Source: a virus (lineage: Duplodnaviria; Heunggongvirae; Uroviricota; Caudoviricetes). Taken from it: a DNA stretch of 14,615 nucleotides. A model generated the notes under the pieces. It did not search any database, was not told where the DNA came from, and saw only the letters and a list, made by a program, of their open reading frames with translations. This document shows positions 1-8,059 of this stretch, in pieces (positions within the stretch are counted from its first letter, which is position 1; every line of letters begins with the position of its first letter). The position numbers were made by a program, and so were the translations under genes. The stretch is taken from the IMG/VR virus record IMGVR_UViG_2534681763_000008. One strand, given 5' to 3'.

Positions 1-708
1 ATAATTACGGCTCACCTGCTGGCTGCCGAACTGCTCCGAGTCCACCTGCACGCCGACCAGTGCCGTGTTCGGGTAGCACTGTTTCACATCGATAATTTCG
101 GTGTATGACGACCAGAGCGTTTTGTTCTGCAGCTGGTCTGTGGTGCTGTCCGGCGTCATCCTGCGCATCCGGATATTAAACGGGCGCGGCGGCAGGTTAT
201 CCACCACCACCGAGGCCAGATACTGTGAAGTGGTTTTGCCCTTAATGGTGATGTCTTTTTCTGTCACCCAGCCACCGTTACGTTGTATCTGAACCAGCAG
301 GCGGACTTCCGATGGATTCCTGTCCCCCTTTGAGGTGGTTTCCACCAGTGCCTGCACGCCGAAAGTAAAACGCAGACGGTCGATGTTTGCAGACGTGATG
401 GTCCGGGTGATCGGCGTGTCATATTTCACTTCTGTACCGAGCACCGTCTCGGAGCCGGAGGATTCAAATCCCTCCGGCGGTGTCTGCTCCTGCTCACCGG
501 CCCGGAACACCACCGTGACGCCGGATATATTGGTATTCCCCTCACTGTCCAGCACCGGCGTACTGTTCAGCAGCACGCTTTTTAATCCATCCACCGGACC
601 TTCAATCGGCCCTTCACTGATGGCATCGATCACACTCAGCAGCTGCGTGGACTTCAGGTTATCCTTCGCTTCGCGCGGGGTATGCCCCTTACTGCTGCCT
701 TTACCCAT
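1..708 (-). CDS. J: Tail tip / host-specificity protein J, N-terminal 236 codons; 5' end of gene only, continues past window start
   Basis: Minus-strand ATG at 708..706 with GGAG 8 nt upstream; frame open to position 1 (708 nt = 236 codons). Translation begins MGKGSSKGHTPREAKDNLKSTQLLSVIDAISEGPIEGPVDGLKSVLLNSTPVLD, which I recognise as the lambda gpJ N-terminus. Not in the ORF track because there is no stop in the window. Confidence 0.85.
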   Translation of the reverse strand, partial: MGKGSSKGHTPREAKDNLKSTQLLSVIDAISEGPIEGPVDGLKSVLLNSTPVLDSEGNTNISGVTVVFRAGEQEQTPPEGFESSGSETVLGTEVKYDTPITRTITSANIDRLRFTFGVQALVETTSKGDRNPSEVRLLVQIQRNGGWVTEKDITIKGKTTSQYLASVVVDNLPPRPFNIRMRRMTPDSTTDQLQNKTLWSSYTEIIDVKQCYPNTALVGVQVDSEQFGSQQVSRNY

Positions 709-730
709 TCGTCATGCTCCATAAACGACA

Positions 731-750
731 AAACCGCCCGGAGGCGGTTT
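731..750 (-). terminator. Stem-loop in the I-J intergenic gap (AAACCGCC-CGGA-GGCGGTTT), T-rich tail on the minus strand; possible weak intrinsic terminator or RNA stabiliser
   Basis: Perfect 8-bp inverted repeat with 4-nt loop seen directly; on the minus strand it is followed by TGTCGTTTAT. Sits between I stop (771..769) and J start (708). Confidence 0.25.
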
Positions 751-768
751 CACATAAAACATTTTGCA

Positions 769-1411
769 TCAGCGACCAATCACCACAACCTGACCACCGT
801 CCCCTTCGTCTGCCGTGCTGATCTCCTGAGAAACCACCCGTGACCCCACGCGCATTTCACCGTACAGAACAGGCAGAACATTGCCCTGGGCAACCATGTT
901 ATCCAGTGAGGAAAAATAGGTGTTCTGTTTGCCGTTATCTGTACTGGCTGCCGTGGACGTCCTGGCTTTCGGTGCCAGCATCTGCGCCACACCGCCCAGG
1001 ATCATACTGGCACCGAGAGAAAACAGCAGATTACTCGCCATAATTCCTACCCACAGGGTTCCACCATGCCACCGCCATAACAGCCGCCCCCAGCACAGCC
1101 TGAAATACACCGCCACTTTTAGCTCCCGCCAGACGCGGCACGATATGGATCACGGCACCATTTGCCAGCGGCTCATTAAGACGGGCAGATAATTCGGTTT
1201 CACCTGCATCACGCCCGGCAATGCGCACCTGATACCAGCCGTCGCTCAGCTTCTGACGAAACGCCGGGATCTGTGTGGCCAGCGCCCGGATGGCTTCGGC
1301 CCCCGTTTTCACACGAAGGTCGATGCGGCGGCCAAATCGTTGCAAATCCCCGTAAAGGCAGATGCGTGCCATGCCCGGTGACGCCAGAGGGAGTGTGTGC
1401 GTCGCTGCCAT
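769..1411 (-). pseudogene. I: Tail assembly protein I homolog, split into two overlapping ORFs (1031..1411 and 769..1116) by a frameshift
   Basis: N-terminal ORF starts MAATHTLPLASPGMARICLYGDLQRFGRRIDLRVKTGAEAIRALATQ; C-terminal ORF ends LFSLGASMILGGVAQMLAPKA...GEMRVGSRVVSQEISTADEGDGGQVVVIGR. Both match lambda gpI as I recall it. End coordinates 1411 and 1116 are in different frames; the frame change falls near the GGG run at about 1050..1054. Confidence 0.75.
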
Positions 1412-2052
1412 TTGTCGGTATACCTCTCTCGTTTGCTCAGTTGTTCAGGAATATGGTGCAGCAGCTCGCCGTCACCACAGTAAATGGCGGCATGATTCGG
1501 CACCGATGAACCAAAACAGCACAGCAGCACATCGCCCGGCTGCGCCGCTGACAACGGCACCTGATACAGCCCTGTGGCCTCCAGATTATCCAGATAGAGA
1601 TTCTGACCGTGACGCCACCAGTCATCCCCGCGATGAAAATCCGGCATCTCAATCCCCGCCAGATGATAAGCATCCCGGAACAGCGTGTAACAGTCCGTCA
1701 CCCCGTGCTCAAAGCGCCGCCCGGTGAGATGCGGCACACAGCGGAATTTATGAATCGTCCCCCGGCAGACCAGCCACCACGGCAAATCACTCTGCACCTG
1801 CAGCCGCCGGTCGGCCTCACTCAGCCAGGGCAGACCACCGGGGTGGCTGTGGACCAGCGCCACAATCTCACCCTGCATTTCTGCCTGCAGCCAGTCCTCC
1901 GGCGACATCCGGAAATACGCCTCCGGCTCACCGGAGATATTCACGCAGGGAAAATATCTTTCCCCCTCCGGCGTTCTCACCACGAAGCCGCACGACTCCG
2001 CTGGCGCACATCGCCGGGCGTGCGCCAGAATCGCTGATTCTGTCTGTGTCAT
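1309..2052 (-). CDS. K: Tail assembly protein K (JAMM/MPN metalloprotease motif plus NlpC/P60-like C-terminal region)
   Basis: ORF 1309..2127; preferred start is the internal ATG at 2052..2050 (MTQTESAILAH...), just after the L stop. JAMM motif HSHPGGLPWLSEAD seen in the translation. Overlaps the I start by 103 nt. The lambda annotation, as I recall, uses a later Met (here about 1908) giving 199 aa. Confidence 0.85.
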   Translation of the reverse strand: MTQTESAILAHARRCAPAESCGFVVRTPEGERYFPCVNISGEPEAYFRMSPEDWLQAEMQGEIVALVHSHPGGLPWLSEADRRLQVQSDLPWWLVCRGTIHKFRCVPHLTGRRFEHGVTDCYTLFRDAYHLAGIEMPDFHRGDDWWRHGQNLYLDNLEATGLYQVPLSAAQPGDVLLCCFGSSVPNHAAIYCGDGELLHHIPEQLSKRERYTDKWQRRTHSLWRHRAWHASAFTGICNDLAAASTFV

Positions 2053-2056
2053 GGGA

Positions 2057-2752
2057 TTACTGCGAAAGTTTGTTAATGGAAAGGAAGCCGCCAAAGTTGC
2101 CGACGTTATTGCGAAACTTACAGCCACTCAGGCATTTGCTGCATTTATCCTTCGTGATATCGGACGTCGGCTGGTCATATTCATCCGCGACAGCCGGACC
2201 GCTATAACCGCACTCATCACCGCGATAGGTCCAGGTGCAGGTGTTGGCCAGCATGATACGTCCCGGAAAAACAGCGCCATCCGTTTCCGTCGGCGTGGAC
2301 AGTACAAAGGAGGCACTGACCGCGCTCAGTTCGCTGCACTGCTCGATGCGCCAGCGGCTGATCACCTCCTGCTCCGGATCGGCTCGCTGTTTCCGTTGAC
2401 GAAGTTCACCGCATCCAGAAAACGGGCGTAAACCTTACGCCGACCACCGTTCCGCCGACCAGACTCTGCAGTCTTCCGCCATCCCGGTGACCATGCCGTA
2501 CAGGTTAGAAACCGTCAGCGTCGGACGGGCAGCACTGCCCTTACCGTTCAGTTCAAATCCCGTCCCCTGAATGGGGTATGCCTGATACTGCCGCCCCTGC
2601 CAGGTGACCGGCTCACCTTTTTCGTTCTGCTCATTACAGAAAAAATAACGTTCACCACCGACCTCTGTCAGATCGATTTCCCAGAGCACCACCTGGGCTG
2701 ACTGAGTAAGGCGTGTCGTCTCATGATGTGTTTCCTGTGGAATATCCTGCAT
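2057..2752 (-). pseudogene. L: Minor tail protein L homolog, disrupted: two ORFs (2435..2752 and 2057..2365) separated by a region readable only by changing frame twice
   Basis: N-terminal ORF MQDIPQETHHETTRLTQSAQVVLWEIDLTEVGGERYFFCNEQNEKGEPVTWQGRQYQ... and C-terminal ORF ISRWRIEQCSELSAVSASFVLSTPTETDGAVFPGRIMLANTCTWTYRGDECGYSGP...FLSINKLSQ match lambda gpL. Between them QSLVGGTVV and RKVYARFLDAVNFVNGNS are encoded in the other two frames. In-frame TAA at 2437..2435. Confidence 0.8.
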
Positions 2753-2761
2753 CAGGGCCTC

Positions 2762-3091
2762 CTATGCCACGACCTGTTCAAAATCTGCCGTTATGGTTAC
2801 CCACAGCGCCCCCACGCTTGCCGACCATTTACGACAAACCACCCTGATCGGCTTCCAGTCATAAGGTGGCGTCCACTGAAATGCGCGGACGCCACCGTGC
2901 CGTTCCAGAAAGGCTTTCAAAGATGGGTGTTCACATTTACGAACACGTATCGTCACGCTGTAAGTCGACAACTGGTTATTCAGTCCCGCCGCACGACGCT
3001 GTTCATAACCATCGCCCAGCTTCACTGTCACCACTTTCGGCTCTGATACCACATTCATATCCGGGCGCACTTTCCAGTGAAACGTCTCCAT
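2762..3091 (-). CDS. M: Minor tail protein M
   Basis: 109 aa, METFHWKVRPDMNVVSEPKVVTVKLGDGYEQRRAAGLNNQLSTYSV...FEQVVA; same length and pattern as lambda gpM. Start ATG shares its A with the H stop (TAATG at 3093..3089). Confidence 0.9.
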   Translation of the reverse strand: METFHWKVRPDMNVVSEPKVVTVKLGDGYEQRRAAGLNNQLSTYSVTIRVRKCEHPSLKAFLERHGGVRAFQWTPPYDWKPIRVVCRKWSASVGALWVTITADFEQVVA

Positions 3092-6000
3092 TACCGATAT
3101 GCTCCACTTAACCGACCACCATCACGGGCCTGCTGTTGCATAAAGTCCGCTGCCGCTTTTTTCCCAAGGTCATAAACCACCTTCAGGGCAGCCGGACCTA
3201 TCTGCCCGTTCGTGCCATCGTTATTGATCTCGATGTTGTACTGCGGGGCAAACATCGCCATACCTGAACCACCAATATCCGCCACAACCCCCAGCTTACC
3301 GTCAGCACCACGACGCAGTGGCAGAATGGCTTCAGGTCCAGCTTCCCCCATCACACCCGCGCCTTTTGCAAAAGCAAAAAACGTCGGACGGTTAACCACC
3401 GTGCCACTGTAGCGACTCAAATCAGCCGACTGATAAACACCGCCATCAGCATTGGCTACAAAATCAAAAGGCAGCGCGGAAGCAATACCTTTTACCGCTT
3501 TCATTAAAGCTATCTGAGCCATGATTCTGGACATATCTGACAGCACAGAAGAGGTGAAGGATTTGAAATTGAGTTTGCCTGTAGTACAGAATGTCGCCAG
3601 CCAGTCACTCATGCTACTGAACGCAGACGTGAACAACTGTTCCACTGTCCCGGCTGTGTTATCCGCTTTCTCAGTGACATTCTGGAGTGCACGCAGGACT
3701 CCGTTTTTCCAGTCACCCTGAGCAATTTCAAGCTGTTGCCAATAACGGCGATTCTCATTCAGTTGTCGGTTCAGGCTCTCCGTCAGCGCCTGCTCGGCCT
3801 TTCTGTAGTCATCCGTGTTATATGTTCCTTTCTGCTCACTATCCCGCCTCAACTGCTCCAGCTGTTGCTGGTATTTCTGGCGAAGACTCAGTTGTACCTG
3901 ATATCGCTGCCGCTGCTGATCACCCATACCCACCGTGGCGATATCCAGGTCATGTTGCTGGCGCTGAGCGCGCTCTTCTTCAGCCAGTTGACTGGTCAGC
4001 TGAATTGTTTTTTTCTTCAGATCGTTGAGTGCCGTCTGTTTCTGAAGCTCCTGCTGTTTTACATCCAGCAGCGTCAGTGCCTGAATCAGTTCATCTTTAC
4101 GGGCCAGCACACTCTTTTCATCTGCCGTCAGTTTTTTCCCGTCCAGATCGCTGATGCGCTGCTGCAGAGCCAGAAGCTGTTTATGCGCTTCTGTCATCCT
4201 GTCAGTGGCAATGCCTGCTGACTGTCTTGCAGCAGCAATCTGTCCTTCCACCTGTGCCTGTTGCTGACTGTACTGCAGCAATAACCGGGTGGCCTCATCA
4301 TTACGGGTTTCGCGTGTTTTTTTCTTACCGGATGCCAGGGCTTTCTCGTAACGTTCATTTTCACGTTGTATCGCCGCATCCCTGACAGCCTGATCGGCGT
4401 ACTGCATGGCATTAATACGCGCAATTTCACGCTGATGTCGTGCTGCTTCCGTTTCATTCATCCGGTTCAGTGCAGCATTTTCAGCATTACGGCGTTTCTG
4501 TTGCTCCTGATAATTCCGCTCTGCCTGCTCTTTTGCATCCTGCAAATCCTTCTGGCGTTTTTTCTCCTGAAGCTCGTTAAGACGCTGCTGATCGTACTCA
4601 ACCTGAGAAGATGATGCCGTCCAGGGGAGTCTTTTCGCCCGCGACACTTTCTCCTGTAAAGCGGAAATCTGTTCATCCAGCGAGTCTTCACGACCAATAT
4701 TCATGGCCGCATCCCAGAAACGACTCCATAAATCAGACAGATACTTCAGCGTACTGCCCAGCGCATTGAGGTTATTATCAATATCCGCAGTACGCCGACC
4801 GGTTTCCTCTGCCAGTGCAGACATGGCTATCCGTGCCGCATCACTGGACCGCCCCTGTTCCCCAAGGACGCGTATCTGCTCAAGCTGAGTGGCAGTAAGA
4901 AAATGCAGCTCATTGTCCAGAGCCTTCGCGGCATTTACAGGATCATCCTTCAGCCGCTTAAACTGACTTATGGTATCGCTGACCGACTGGCCAACCGATC
5001 GCTCCATCTGTGCGGCAGCTCTCGCCACCATACCGATATCGTTTCCACGAAATGCACCACTCCCCACCACCTGAGCCAGCGCACCGGCTGCAGCATGTTG
5101 CGTGATACCATTCCCGGAAATAGCACGACTGAGCGTCCACAGCTGCCCGGCAGTGACTCCGGCATAATGCCCCGTCAGCGACAACTGGCGGTTAAATTCT
5201 TCCCCCTCCTTCTGACCGTCATACCAGGCTTTACCCAGACCATAGACGGCCGCGGCAATACCGCCAATAACCCCGCCCAGCATCATGCCTTTCGGTGACA
5301 TCAGTGTGTCTATCCATCCGGCACGGTTAGCCAGCGTTATCCCGGATCCCCTCAGCGCACCTAAATTGCCGCGAGCCAGTTCACCTATCAGAACGCCTAT
5401 CTCCTGGCGGGCCGCTGCACTTTTCAGACCCAGCGAATGCGTGGCTTTTCCTGCCTGCTCCATTTTGCGGATATACACTTCTGCAGCACTGCTTACCCCC
5501 AGCTGGGCAGCCTTAGCACGAAGCAACTCAGAAGAAGAAAGATTCTGGCGGGTTGCCTGCTCTTTAAGCTGACGGATAAACGCCACTTTCTGTCGGGTAG
5601 CCTCTTCCTCAGCCTGTGTAAGAACACGGGTTTTCGCCGTAACCTCAGAAATCAGCGCCAGATAATCCTGCTGACCAATCCCGCCACTGTTTCTGGCCTG
5701 TCGGATCTGCTGCTGAATACGCTGTAATTCCTGCAGCCCCGCACTGGCCTGTTTCACACTGTCAATCTGACGATAAAACGCAGCAGCCGCTTTATCCTGA
5801 GCCTCCGCCAGAGCCATGGCCTGCGCCTGTTCATCGCGCATTTTCTGGCTCAGCGCCTCCATGCGCTGGCGGGTTTTCTCCACCTCGCGGGCCATGCGTT
5901 CATGAGCCTGTGCGTTCTTCTCCACCGTCTGCGCATGGACGGAGGCGGCTGTTGCAGCCGAAGAAGCCGCCTGCGTTGTCTGCCGGGCGGCCTGAGTCTG

Positions 6001-6147
6001 ACGCTCCATAAAACGCTGCATACGGGCAGAAGACCGTTCTGCATCGCTGGCGGCACCATTCAGAAGGTTTTTGATACGGGGAATTTCATTTTTAAACTCT
6101 GCCGCATCAATCCCCAAATCAATGACCAGGTTGGCTATCTGGTCCAT
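3091..6147 (-). CDS. H: Tail tape measure protein (lambda gpH-like C-terminus)
   Basis: ORF 3091..6177; preferred start ATG at 6147..6145 (MDQIANLVIDLG...) with GGAGGT 7 nt upstream. Long Q/E/R/A-rich coiled-coil-like middle, hydrophobic segment MMLGGVIGGIAAAVYGL, C-terminus INNDGTNGQIGPAALKVVYDL...DGGRLSG as in lambda gpH. About 1018 aa. Confidence 0.9.
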   Translation of the reverse strand: MDQIANLVIDLGIDAAEFKNEIPRIKNLLNGAASDAERSSARMQRFMERQTQAARQTTQAASSAATAASVHAQTVEKNAQAHERMAREVEKTRQRMEALSQKMRDEQAQAMALAEAQDKAAAAFYRQIDSVKQASAGLQELQRIQQQIRQARNSGGIGQQDYLALISEVTAKTRVLTQAEEEATRQKVAFIRQLKEQATRQNLSSSELLRAKAAQLGVSSAAEVYIRKMEQAGKATHSLGLKSAAARQEIGVLIGELARGNLGALRGSGITLANRAGWIDTLMSPKGMMLGGVIGGIAAAVYGLGKAWYDGQKEGEEFNRQLSLTGHYAGVTAGQLWTLSRAISGNGITQHAAAGALAQVVGSGAFRGNDIGMVARAAAQMERSVGQSVSDTISQFKRLKDDPVNAAKALDNELHFLTATQLEQIRVLGEQGRSSDAARIAMSALAEETGRRTADIDNNLNALGSTLKYLSDLWSRFWDAAMNIGREDSLDEQISALQEKVSRAKRLPWTASSSQVEYDQQRLNELQEKKRQKDLQDAKEQAERNYQEQQKRRNAENAALNRMNETEAARHQREIARINAMQYADQAVRDAAIQRENERYEKALASGKKKTRETRNDEATRLLLQYSQQQAQVEGQIAAARQSAGIATDRMTEAHKQLLALQQRISDLDGKKLTADEKSVLARKDELIQALTLLDVKQQELQKQTALNDLKKKTIQLTSQLAEEERAQRQQHDLDIATVGMGDQQRQRYQVQLSLRQKYQQQLEQLRRDSEQKGTYNTDDYRKAEQALTESLNRQLNENRRYWQQLEIAQGDWKNGVLRALQNVTEKADNTAGTVEQLFTSAFSSMSDWLATFCTTGKLNFKSFTSSVLSDMSRIMAQIALMKAVKGIASALPFDFVANADGGVYQSADLSRYSGTVVNRPTFFAFAKGAGVMGEAGPEAILPLRRGADGKLGVVADIGGSGMAMFAPQYNIEINNDGTNGQIGPAALKVVYDLGKKAAADFMQQQARDGGRLSGAYR

Positions 6148-6448
6148 AACGCACACCTCCGGAAATACCTTCTCCAAGATGCATCAGTTCTTCGTCCGTT
6201 CGCTCCGGTATCCCGTTCTCTTCCGGTAAAAGGCTGAAATCAGCCACCGCAGCATCACTGCTGCCGGACACCATTCTCACGATCAATGCCTTCAGCGAGG
6301 CAAACTGCGCATCCATCCACACATCACTGAAGCTCTGCATCCGGAAATAATCGCCCCACTCACCAAGCTCAGTGGCCGACATTTCCGACAGCATCCGCCG
6401 CCAGTCTGCCCGCCGGAACTCCCGGGCAAGCCGCATGACAAACTGCAT
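6119..6448 (-). CDS. T: T portion of tail assembly chaperone G-T (expected to be made as a G-T fusion by -1 frameshifting)
   Basis: ORF in the -1 frame relative to G, immediately downstream. The T frame is open upstream of its ATG back to 6481, overlapping the last 8 codons of G. Gene order V-G-T-H as in lambda. Confidence 0.75.
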   Translation of the reverse strand: MQFVMRLAREFRRADWRRMLSEMSATELGEWGDYFRMQSFSDVWMDAQFASLKALIVRMVSGSSDAAVADFSLLPEENGIPERTDEELMHLGEGISGGVRYGPDSQPGH

Positions 6449-6456
6449 TTCCCGCG

Positions 6457-6843
6457 TCAGGACTTTTCCGGCGTCAGCGCCTCATGCTCATCATCCCCGG
6501 CATTATCAATGGCCCCCATACCGCTCAGCGACAGAACCATCTCCGCCCCCGCACCCAGGGCATCATACGACCATGTTGTAATAACGGATGCGCAAAGCGT
6601 CTCTACATCCTTAGACTGATCCGCATTCCACAGTGAGCGGGAAACCAGCCAGGCATTGATATCCATCCCCATCCGCAGAAAAGCAATCTGTCGTTCAGCC
6701 TCCGGCAGTTCTCCCTCCCCGGCATCAAACTTTGCCGTTCGCTGCTGAACAAACGCCAGATATTCAATTCTCTGCAGCCCGGACAGCTCACTGAGCACCA
6801 CGGACTGTTTTTCATAATTAAACGTGCCCTGTTTCAGAAACAT
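6457..6843 (-). CDS. G: Tail assembly chaperone G
   Basis: ORF 6457..6885; preferred start is the second of two tandem ATGs (6846 and 6843), giving MFLKQGTFNYEKQSVVLSELSGLQRIEYLA..., like lambda gpG MFLK...LSELSALQRIEHLA. GGTGGAG upstream. Confidence 0.85.
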   Translation of the reverse strand: MFLKQGTFNYEKQSVVLSELSGLQRIEYLAFVQQRTAKFDAGEGELPEAERQIAFLRMGMDINAWLVSRSLWNADQSKDVETLCASVITTWSYDALGAGAEMVLSLSGMGAIDNAGDDEHEALTPEKS

Positions 6844-6859
6844 CATGTTCTCCACCTGC

Positions 6860-6883
6860 AAAAAAGCCCCGGATAACCGGGGC
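6860..6883 (-). terminator. Intrinsic-terminator-like hairpin between V and G: GCCCCGG-TTAT-CCGGGGC followed by TTTTTT on the minus strand
   Basis: Perfect 7-bp GC stem (6866..6872 / 6877..6883) with 4-nt loop and a 6-nt T run (6865..6860) on the transcribed strand, 14 nt before the G start region. Confidence 0.5.
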
Positions 6884-6903
6884 AAATGATGAGTATCGTC
6901 CTG

Positions 6904-7647
6904 TTAACCTGCGGCGCTGACAGCCACCGTAGCCACTGCCACAAAATCGCCGTCAGAAGTCATGCCCACAATGCTGACACTGCCCTGCTTCACGCCTTTC
7001 ACCGTGGCCACAAGCCCGTTCAGGGTCACCGTGGCAGTCTGTGGATCTGTCGAATGCACACTGATCGCTTTGTCACTGGCTCCGTCAGGTTTTACTGTAA
7101 AGGTCAGCGTGGTGGTTGCTCCCACTTTTACACTGGCAGATGCCGGTGCCACCGTCAGCCCGGTAACGCCCACGGTTTCAGTGCCTTCCTCTGCCAGATA
7201 CGGACGCCCCACACCGCTGATTTTCACGGTGCGGGTCATCACGTCTTTTGAGGCAATGGTTTTACCCAGTGAACTCAGCCAGCCACGGAAAACATCAACA
7301 GTACCGTTGGGATATTTGATACGAAACGCGCAGACTTCACCGGAGTCGAACAACTGAACCAGTTTTTTCTGCCCGCTGTCCCCCGGACGCCAGGCCAGCG
7401 TCGCCGAAGTATCACCGACGGATTTCTGCCCCTGGGTTGTCGTTTTCCAGTCTGCATCTTCATCATCGAGATAAGTGTCATCTTCTGCATCAGCGGTCAT
7501 TTCGCCAGGTTGCAGATCCTTCACCATCGCAAGACGCAACCAGTCAGTGTCCGACAAAGGGTTCGCAAACGCATCGCCGTTGCCGGTATACATCCAGAAC
7601 GTCGTTCCCGCACCTTTCGTTTTTGCCAGTGGATTTGGTGTGGTCAT
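6904..7647 (-). CDS. V: Major tail protein V, with C-terminal Ig-like region
   Basis: ORF 6904..7722; preferred start ATG 7647..7645 (MTTPNPLAKTKGAGTTFWMYTGNGDAFANPLSDTDWLRLAMVKDLQPGEMTA...) with AGGAGG upstream; matches lambda gpV. 247 aa. Confidence 0.9.
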   Translation of the reverse strand: MTTPNPLAKTKGAGTTFWMYTGNGDAFANPLSDTDWLRLAMVKDLQPGEMTADAEDDTYLDDEDADWKTTTQGQKSVGDTSATLAWRPGDSGQKKLVQLFDSGEVCAFRIKYPNGTVDVFRGWLSSLGKTIASKDVMTRTVKISGVGRPYLAEEGTETVGVTGLTVAPASASVKVGATTTLTFTVKPDGASDKAISVHSTDPQTATVTLNGLVATVKGVKQGSVSIVGMTSDGDFVAVATVAVSAAG

Positions 7648-7657
7648 TACCACCTCC

Positions 7658-8059
7658 TTAATTCGTGTACGTGATCTGGTACGTGATTTCCGCCATCGCC
7701 CAGGTGGCCATCTCATTATCACGTTGATAGTTAAAACCGAGTGGGATCAGGGTGTCGATGAGTCCGGAAAGTGCCGGTATATCATTCAGGGCCGGGAAAA
7801 TGGTGCTCTCCATCCACATATCCAGCTCTGAATCCGGTGCCTGTGCCCGGATGAAGACAGCAATATGCAGAACAGCCTGCCAGTCATCTTCATCCGTCAT
7901 TTTTCCGGTGTACTGAGCATCACTCAGCCACACTGCCACGGCAGGCAGTTCCTGCGCATCAACAAATGCCGGAAGCCCGTCAAAAAACGTGGCGCTGTCT
8001 CCACACTGTTTCCGAAGGCGTGCTAGTACGACCTGGCGGATTTGTGTATGTCGGTTCAT
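7658..8059 (-). CDS. U: Minor tail protein U (tail terminator)
   Basis: ORF 7658..8071; MNRHTQIRQVVLARL...ATFFDGLPAFVDAQELPAVAVWLSDAQYTG...DSELDMWMEST...IPALSGLIDT matches lambda gpU. Preferred start ATG 8059..8057 overlaps the Z stop (ATGA); alternative start at 8071. Confidence 0.85.
   Translation of the reverse strand: MNRHTQIRQVVLARLRKQCGDSATFFDGLPAFVDAQELPAVAVWLSDAQYTGKMTDEDDWQAVLHIAVFIRAQAPDSELDMWMESTIFPALNDIPALSGLIDTLIPLGFNYQRDNEMATWAMAEITYQITYTN

Follow-up and report, generated by a model that had tools for sequence, protein, structure and literature searches.

The window analysed here is the entire contig AQEC01000066.1 (14,615 bp) of the draft assembly GCA_000356065.2, from E. coli 2729250, as exact matches to its K protein and to the 90-aa C-terminal product of I show; we found no literature on AQEC01 or on this strain. 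It carries a lambda-like head and tail module whose genes all lie on the minus strand, in the order terminase remnant, portal, protease/capsid fusion, tail genes, H, M, L, K, I, and the start of J. One end of the contig falls inside J and the other inside an IS66-family element, both of which are typical repeat-bounded ends. The start of this element (tnpA, 14306..14615, plus strand) abuts and truncates the terminase gene, and only the endonuclease domain (GpA_nuclease) of gpA remains (13025..14305, minus strand), the ATPase domain being missing. At least five complete ETEC genomes share this lesion; their gpA is annotated with its N-terminus missing and adjoins IS66 tnpA. Hence, the prophage is genuinely defective.

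Gene I lies between K and J and overlaps K, as judged from the gene calls and from the annotation of relatives and of lambda. Its N-terminal fragment (1031..1411, minus strand; 126 aa) opens with an ATG, starts MAATHTLPLASPGMARICLYGDLQRFGRRIDL and, in frame translation, reads MAATHT...AVAWWNPVGRNYGE, terminating at a TAA (1033..1031) after five off-frame codons (RNYGE). The C-terminal part (769..1116, minus strand; 115 aa, from a GTG) occupies the next frame, which is open from 1116 to the stop at 771..769 and translates as ...GIMASNLLFSLGASMILGG...VVVIGR, also given as ...GIMASNLLFSLGASMILGGVAQML...GGQVVVIGR. The GenBank calls are shorter: the N-terminal piece is a 93-aa product (1031..1312, ENA50369.1), and the C-terminal piece begins at the first ATG of its frame (1041..1039; 90 aa, ENA50367.1). 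The 126-aa piece matches the Pfam family Lambda_tail_I (PF06805) with 87.5 bits (cut-off 23.8) over residues 14–97, and an exact look-up of this ORF returned no record.

Both pieces are collinear with lambda gpI (NP_040599.1, PF06805), with 81% identity over the N-terminal domain and 78% over the C-terminal plug and β-strand part. The window and lambda also share the L-K-I-J gene order and the same 103-nt overlap of K and I. However, lambda gpI is encoded in one frame, whereas in the window no continuous ORF spans the N-terminal domain, the hydrophobic segment and the C-terminal plug/β region; two frames are used instead. The pattern is that of one gene in two frames, not of chance ORFs. The initial annotation had placed the two halves of a gpI homolog in different frames that overlap at 1031..1116 (86 nt), which agrees with the ORF list, Pfam and the lambda alignment. 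It had also proposed alignment to intact I homologs as a check, and in lambda, as in thousands of homologs, gene I is encoded by one ORF.

Over its full length, the window is 99.4% identical to five complete ETEC genomes, ETEC-2265 and 120899 among them, and in all five I, K and L are intact; the lesions are therefore not common to independent assemblies of the same lineage. The intact I of these relatives (ETEC-2265, 120899 and 2013C-3264) is WP_000741576.1. The differences are distributed very unevenly along the window. From 2520 to 14615, which includes the same IS66-truncated terminase, the ortholog in ETEC-2265 differs by 2 SNPs and no indels (99.98% identity). The remaining stretch, 313..2519, which covers the N-terminus of J, all of I and K and most of L, holds all but 2–3 of the differences from the closest complete genomes, with ∼96 differing columns against ETEC-2265 that include all four frame-breaking length changes. 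In other words, the paralog-shared 2.2 kb holds four frame-breaking changes, and the 12 kb of unique sequence holds none.

The boundary of the deviating stretch coincides with a change in the similarity among the co-resident prophages of the lineage. Over 313..2519, the co-resident lambdoid prophage copies are ∼90–100% identical, and the deviation from the ortholog begins at 2519, where the identity between copies climbs from ∼0.6 to ≥0.9; paralog identity stays at or above ∼0.9 from ∼2500 to beyond the contig end. Strain 120899 carries a third lambdoid copy, with a lambda-type I. Within window positions 1..2800, each polymorphic column matches copy 1, 2 or 3 of 120899, these reference copies being taken from that related strain and not from 2729250, and the exceptions are the three deletions in L described below. 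The anomalies are thus confined to sequence that is highly similar to other copies in the lineage, the deviating bases are all found in a paralog, and the indels fall on columns that vary among paralogs. The N-terminus of J (313..664) follows the third ETEC-lineage copy, which has the lambda-type module, rather than the ortholog, save at 5 sites; natural J alleles reach 99.1% identity.

Natural I alleles differ in a hydrophobic middle segment, by which a type A, a type B and a longer lambda type can be told apart. The type-A segment reads ...AWWNP[VA]GWLGA...SGMYAAGASMILGG, and the type-B segment, ...AIWMPGVGIMASNLLFSLGASMVLGG, is 6 nt shorter. At the DNA level, type A has 1 nt more than type B at one place (+1) and 5 nt more at another (+5), and these two length differences compensate for each other. 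The segment measures 37–39 aa in A and B alleles and 47 aa in lambda, and across natural alleles the H1/H2 segment of gpI ranges from 33 to 47 aa. Several natural sequences (P0011, P0103, P0039, and L017 at 6160..6860) are in-frame hybrids or deletions in H1/H2, comprising B/lambda, lambda/A and shortened forms. Alleles are shuffled and vary in length especially often in the hydrophobic H1/H2 segment, within which the break in the window appears, from the alignment, to fall.

The sequence of the window is type A through ...GGAACCCTGTGGG and then type B from TAGGAATTATGGCG..., and the frameshift arises because it has the +1 nt of type A but not the +5 nt. The anatomy of the break can be described as a series of patches on the minus strand. 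An island of type-A sequence at 1053..1070 (copy 1, haplotype X), which encodes AWWNPV and carries the extra 1 nt, is at most ∼25 nt long and has type-B sequence on either side. It is followed by a type-B patch identical to copy 2 (1012..1050) that encodes GIMASNLLFSLGASM and lacks the extra 5 nt of type A. At the junction between them (J2, 1050..1052), where the frame is lost, GGG is the sole sequence common to the type-A upstream and type-B downstream parts. The hybrid 49-mer at this junction is GCTGTTATGGCGGTGGCATGGTGGAACCCTGTGGGTAGGAATTATGGCG, with ...GGAACCCTGTGGGCTGGCTGGGTGCC... as its type-A and ...ATATGGATGCCGGGGGTAGGAATT... as its type-B counterpart. A second type-B patch lies at 1076..1098 (AAVMAV); where it meets the next type-A patch (J1), the common sequence is limited to GCGGT (5 nt). 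The segment that contains J1 and J2 is ∼41% identical between the A and B alleles. Two further type-B patches were found at 1244..1270 (4 sites, in the N-terminal domain) and at 841..889 (4–5 sites, in the C-terminal part). One natural intact phage gene also has the downstream B-to-A join, LFSLGASM followed by ILGG.

Taken as a whole, gene I of the window equals a natural haplotype with a type-A I (haplotype X) plus exactly four patches identical to copy 2 of 120899, and it has no private bases relative to these two sequences. Haplotype X is widespread, with 100% matches in many complete genomes. The resulting mosaic switches eight times in 643 nt, and two of the switches occur at 3–5 nt of shared sequence. 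WP_000741576.1, the intact ETEC type-A I, lacks the type-B patches and is identical to the window outside them; its variable segment, WWNPVGWLGAAAVSGMYAAGASM, is 5 nt longer than that of the window overall, and in frame.

The initial annotation had attributed the split to one G too many in a GGG run. Deletion of one base from the plus-strand CCC at 1050..1052 does restore a continuous protein, of 213 aa, as predicted. A simple slip of a G run in an otherwise normal gene is not supported, however: the repaired protein, ...AWWNPVVGIMASN..., is not a natural allele, and the break joins two alleles.

Gene L (2057..2752, minus strand) is broken by three 1-nt deletions, after plus-strand positions 2383, 2441 and 2470 (GGATCGGCTCGCTG, TTACGCCGACCACC and CTCTGCAGTCTTCC, plus strand), all within 90 nt (2383..2472). 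Since the net change is −3, the reading frame of L recovers after 29 garbled codons, a stop among them, and GenBank calls two pieces of 105 and 102 aa. At the columns of the three deletions, the copies have G/A/T, T/G/G and G/T/G, and no deletion lies in a run longer than 2; the chance that three of three random sites would hit polymorphic columns is 0.0005–0.0014. Thus, three of the four frame-breaking changes in the window lie exactly on paralog SNP columns and outside homopolymer runs. The 102-aa C-terminal product of L with an internal start (P0166) is recorded from 85 contigs, including complete chromosomes, so L is called as a fragment in many other assemblies as well.

Gene K (JAB and NlpC/P60 domains; 1309..2052, minus strand), between L and I, is intact. 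Compared with three independent metagenome contigs, it differs at 2–4 of 744 nt and at no amino acid, and on sequence grounds it is a genuine natural allele. It follows that the window and its ETEC relatives differ in part by real allelic variation, and the idea that the whole of 313..2519 is blended was rejected for K.

Searches for the junction elsewhere gave no match. The junction region (985..1125) has no match above 90.8% in 5,426 complete E. coli genomes, and a hybrid with 1–6 bases at the junction was found neither in complete E. coli genomes nor in GTDB genomes, JGI metagenomes or IMG/VR; the J1 join is likewise absent from IMG/VR. Among 11,061 I-gene places in 4,375 complete E. coli genomes, not one has the split frame; a plasmid collection contained no closer I allele, and the hybrid of AWWNPV and GIMASN is present in none of the 120 protein clusters that best match the repaired protein. 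Among ∼15 billion proteins, AQEC01000066.1 is the sole recorded source of the 93-aa and 90-aa I products and of the 105-aa L fragment. The best natural matches for the two halves of I reach only 96.8% and 93.7%, compared with 98.1% and 100% for two independent natural alleles from metagenome contigs that served as controls.

Some measures proved uninformative. Against the same three references, natural alleles need 12–14 parent switches, so mosaicism by itself does not identify an artefact. In 80% of 2:1 columns the window goes with the majority copy, versus 60–71% for the copies themselves. Neither fine mosaicism nor a majority of three copies was therefore retained as proof of an artefact. 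Comparison of 12-mers with the 120 cluster representatives missed known natural segments; being too coarse, it was not counted as evidence.

The mosaic anatomy, its uniqueness and the positions of the indels were observed directly. As to their cause, we infer that the frameshift in I and the lesions in L are probably a chimeric consensus of paralogous prophage copies, that is, an error of assembly and not biology. This reading is supported by the confinement of the lesions to the paralog-like stretch, their placement on SNP columns, the 3–5-nt junctions and their absence from relatives that are 99.98% identical. In the proposed sequence of events, the contig is anchored in the unique prophage sequence (2520..14615) and then enters the L-K-I-J tail module, of which this ETEC lineage has at least three copies, ∼90–100% identical. 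Within that module, the assembler may have blended reads or sub-assemblies of different copies, producing in gene I a type-A allele with four type-B patches. The consensus would have moved from A to B between the +1 and +5 differences, such that +1 alone was kept and the frame was lost, and the same blending could have dropped single bases of L at columns where the copies disagree. A consensus drawn from a mixed-copy pile-up can drop a base and can switch columns anywhere. An overlap-consensus step on a few long sub-reads would yield exactly such ties.

Collapsed or chimeric consensus sequences of near-identical repeats occur in draft assemblies, as a matter of general knowledge rather than as a curated family. 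The window resembles them in that the affected stretch is paralog-similar, lies near a contig end and has odd bases that paralogs explain; it differs in that the stretch includes K, whose sequence is that of a clean natural allele. If the chimeric-consensus reading holds, the true gene I of strain 2729250 is probably the intact type-A allele of its closest complete relatives.

The main alternative is that gene I is a real recombinational pseudogene, the tail module of this defective prophage having been patch-converted from co-resident lambdoid prophages in 2729250; the frame would then be shifted by one exchange placed between the two indels that compensate each other in the I alleles. We regard this as unlikely, although it is not without precedent. 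Mosaic, decaying lambdoid prophages undergo relaxed homologous recombination, and lambdoid and defective prophages readily exchange diverged DNA via phage Rad52-like recombinases (PMC3945230). The window resembles such prophages in being defective, with an IS in its terminase, and in having a mosaic tail module. Natural alleles are themselves finely mosaic, in-frame hybrids occur in the same variable segment (P0011, P0103, L017), one of the joins is present in the natural phage gene noted above, and all donor bases are present in the co-resident copies of the lineage. Real decay of a tail gene would also be tolerated, because the prophage is already defective, and with no intact terminase there is no selection against the lesion. 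Against this, the junctions of the window lack the flanking homology expected of such exchange: J1 and J2 share 5 and 3 nt within a ∼41%-identical segment, which fits neither RecA- nor Red-type recombination. Eight switches in 643 nt, together with a second donor for J, would be needed in a lineage otherwise 99.98% identical to its relatives, and those relatives have none of the changes; nor was the junction seen in any other genome searched. Recombination also leaves unexplained why the L deletions sit on paralog-polymorphic columns, since correction of heteroduplex mismatches would choose either base and not drop one. Were the junction real, microhomology-mediated template switching or patchy gene conversion among three co-resident lambdoid prophages might have produced it, a route that we consider rather improbable. 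Recombination on this scale would mean that ∼2 kb of a defective tail module was rewritten in a very short evolutionary time, and that an out-of-register exchange in the hypervariable H1/H2 segment inactivated gpI. A real junction would illustrate, in a modest way, how exchange between prophages can inactivate a tail tip gene in a dead prophage.

Two other readings were weighed. The gene could be a true in-frame A/B hybrid in which an extra G was introduced into the GGG by homopolymer sequencing error or by replication slippage; removal of one G, or addition of two, gives an ORF of 213 or 214 aa with the Pfam domain. Slips do occur in gene I, as P0137 (NCBI, a 1,175-bp contig) has a type-B I with an unrelated frameshift in a G5 run after QAVLG. 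A run of three is nevertheless a weak site for slippage or error, and the in-frame hybrid that this reading requires, with 1–6 junction bases, is in none of the collections searched and not among the best 120 clusters; because the chimeric context and the L deletions are also left aside, we consider it very unlikely. The frameshift in P0137 reaches the same off-frame stop, after ...GRNYGE. A programmed +1 ribosomal frameshift, or two normally separate genes, would rest solely on the 86-nt overlap of the two frames and is scarcely credible: gene I is one ORF in lambda and in thousands of homologs, the split is conserved nowhere else, and the sequence CCT GTG GGT AGG, on inspection, has no slippery motif for +1 re-pairing. 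Rfam gave no match in the window.

The chimeric-consensus reading bears on how the record should be used. The initial annotation had counted three disrupted morphogenesis genes in this prophage. The terminase lesion stands, its IS66 truncation being found in complete genomes, and it is the only disruption of a morphogenesis gene corroborated as a genuine defect, while the lesions in I and L are private to the draft contig. On the most likely reading, the record contains a split of gpI that the organism does not have. More generally, frameshifts in prophage tail genes of draft assemblies of poly-lysogenic E. coli should not be equated with gene decay without read-level support.

Two further features of the tail region were recorded. 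At the G/T junction, lambda has the slippery heptamer GGGAAAG, whereas the window has CGGAAAAG; the 3′ end of G (6457..6475, minus strand) reads ...CCG GAA AAG TCC TGA, and T (6119..6448) is a separate ORF in the annotation of RefSeq relatives. The intergenic region between I and J (709..768) contains a perfect GC-rich hairpin at 733..752, AAACCGCC-TCCG-GGCGGTTT, with a predicted fold energy of −21.5 kcal/mol (z-score −3.1) and a T-rich tract 3′ of it on the gene strand. It is kept in all six of the aligned alleles, bar one loop base in one phage, and its sequence is terminator-like.
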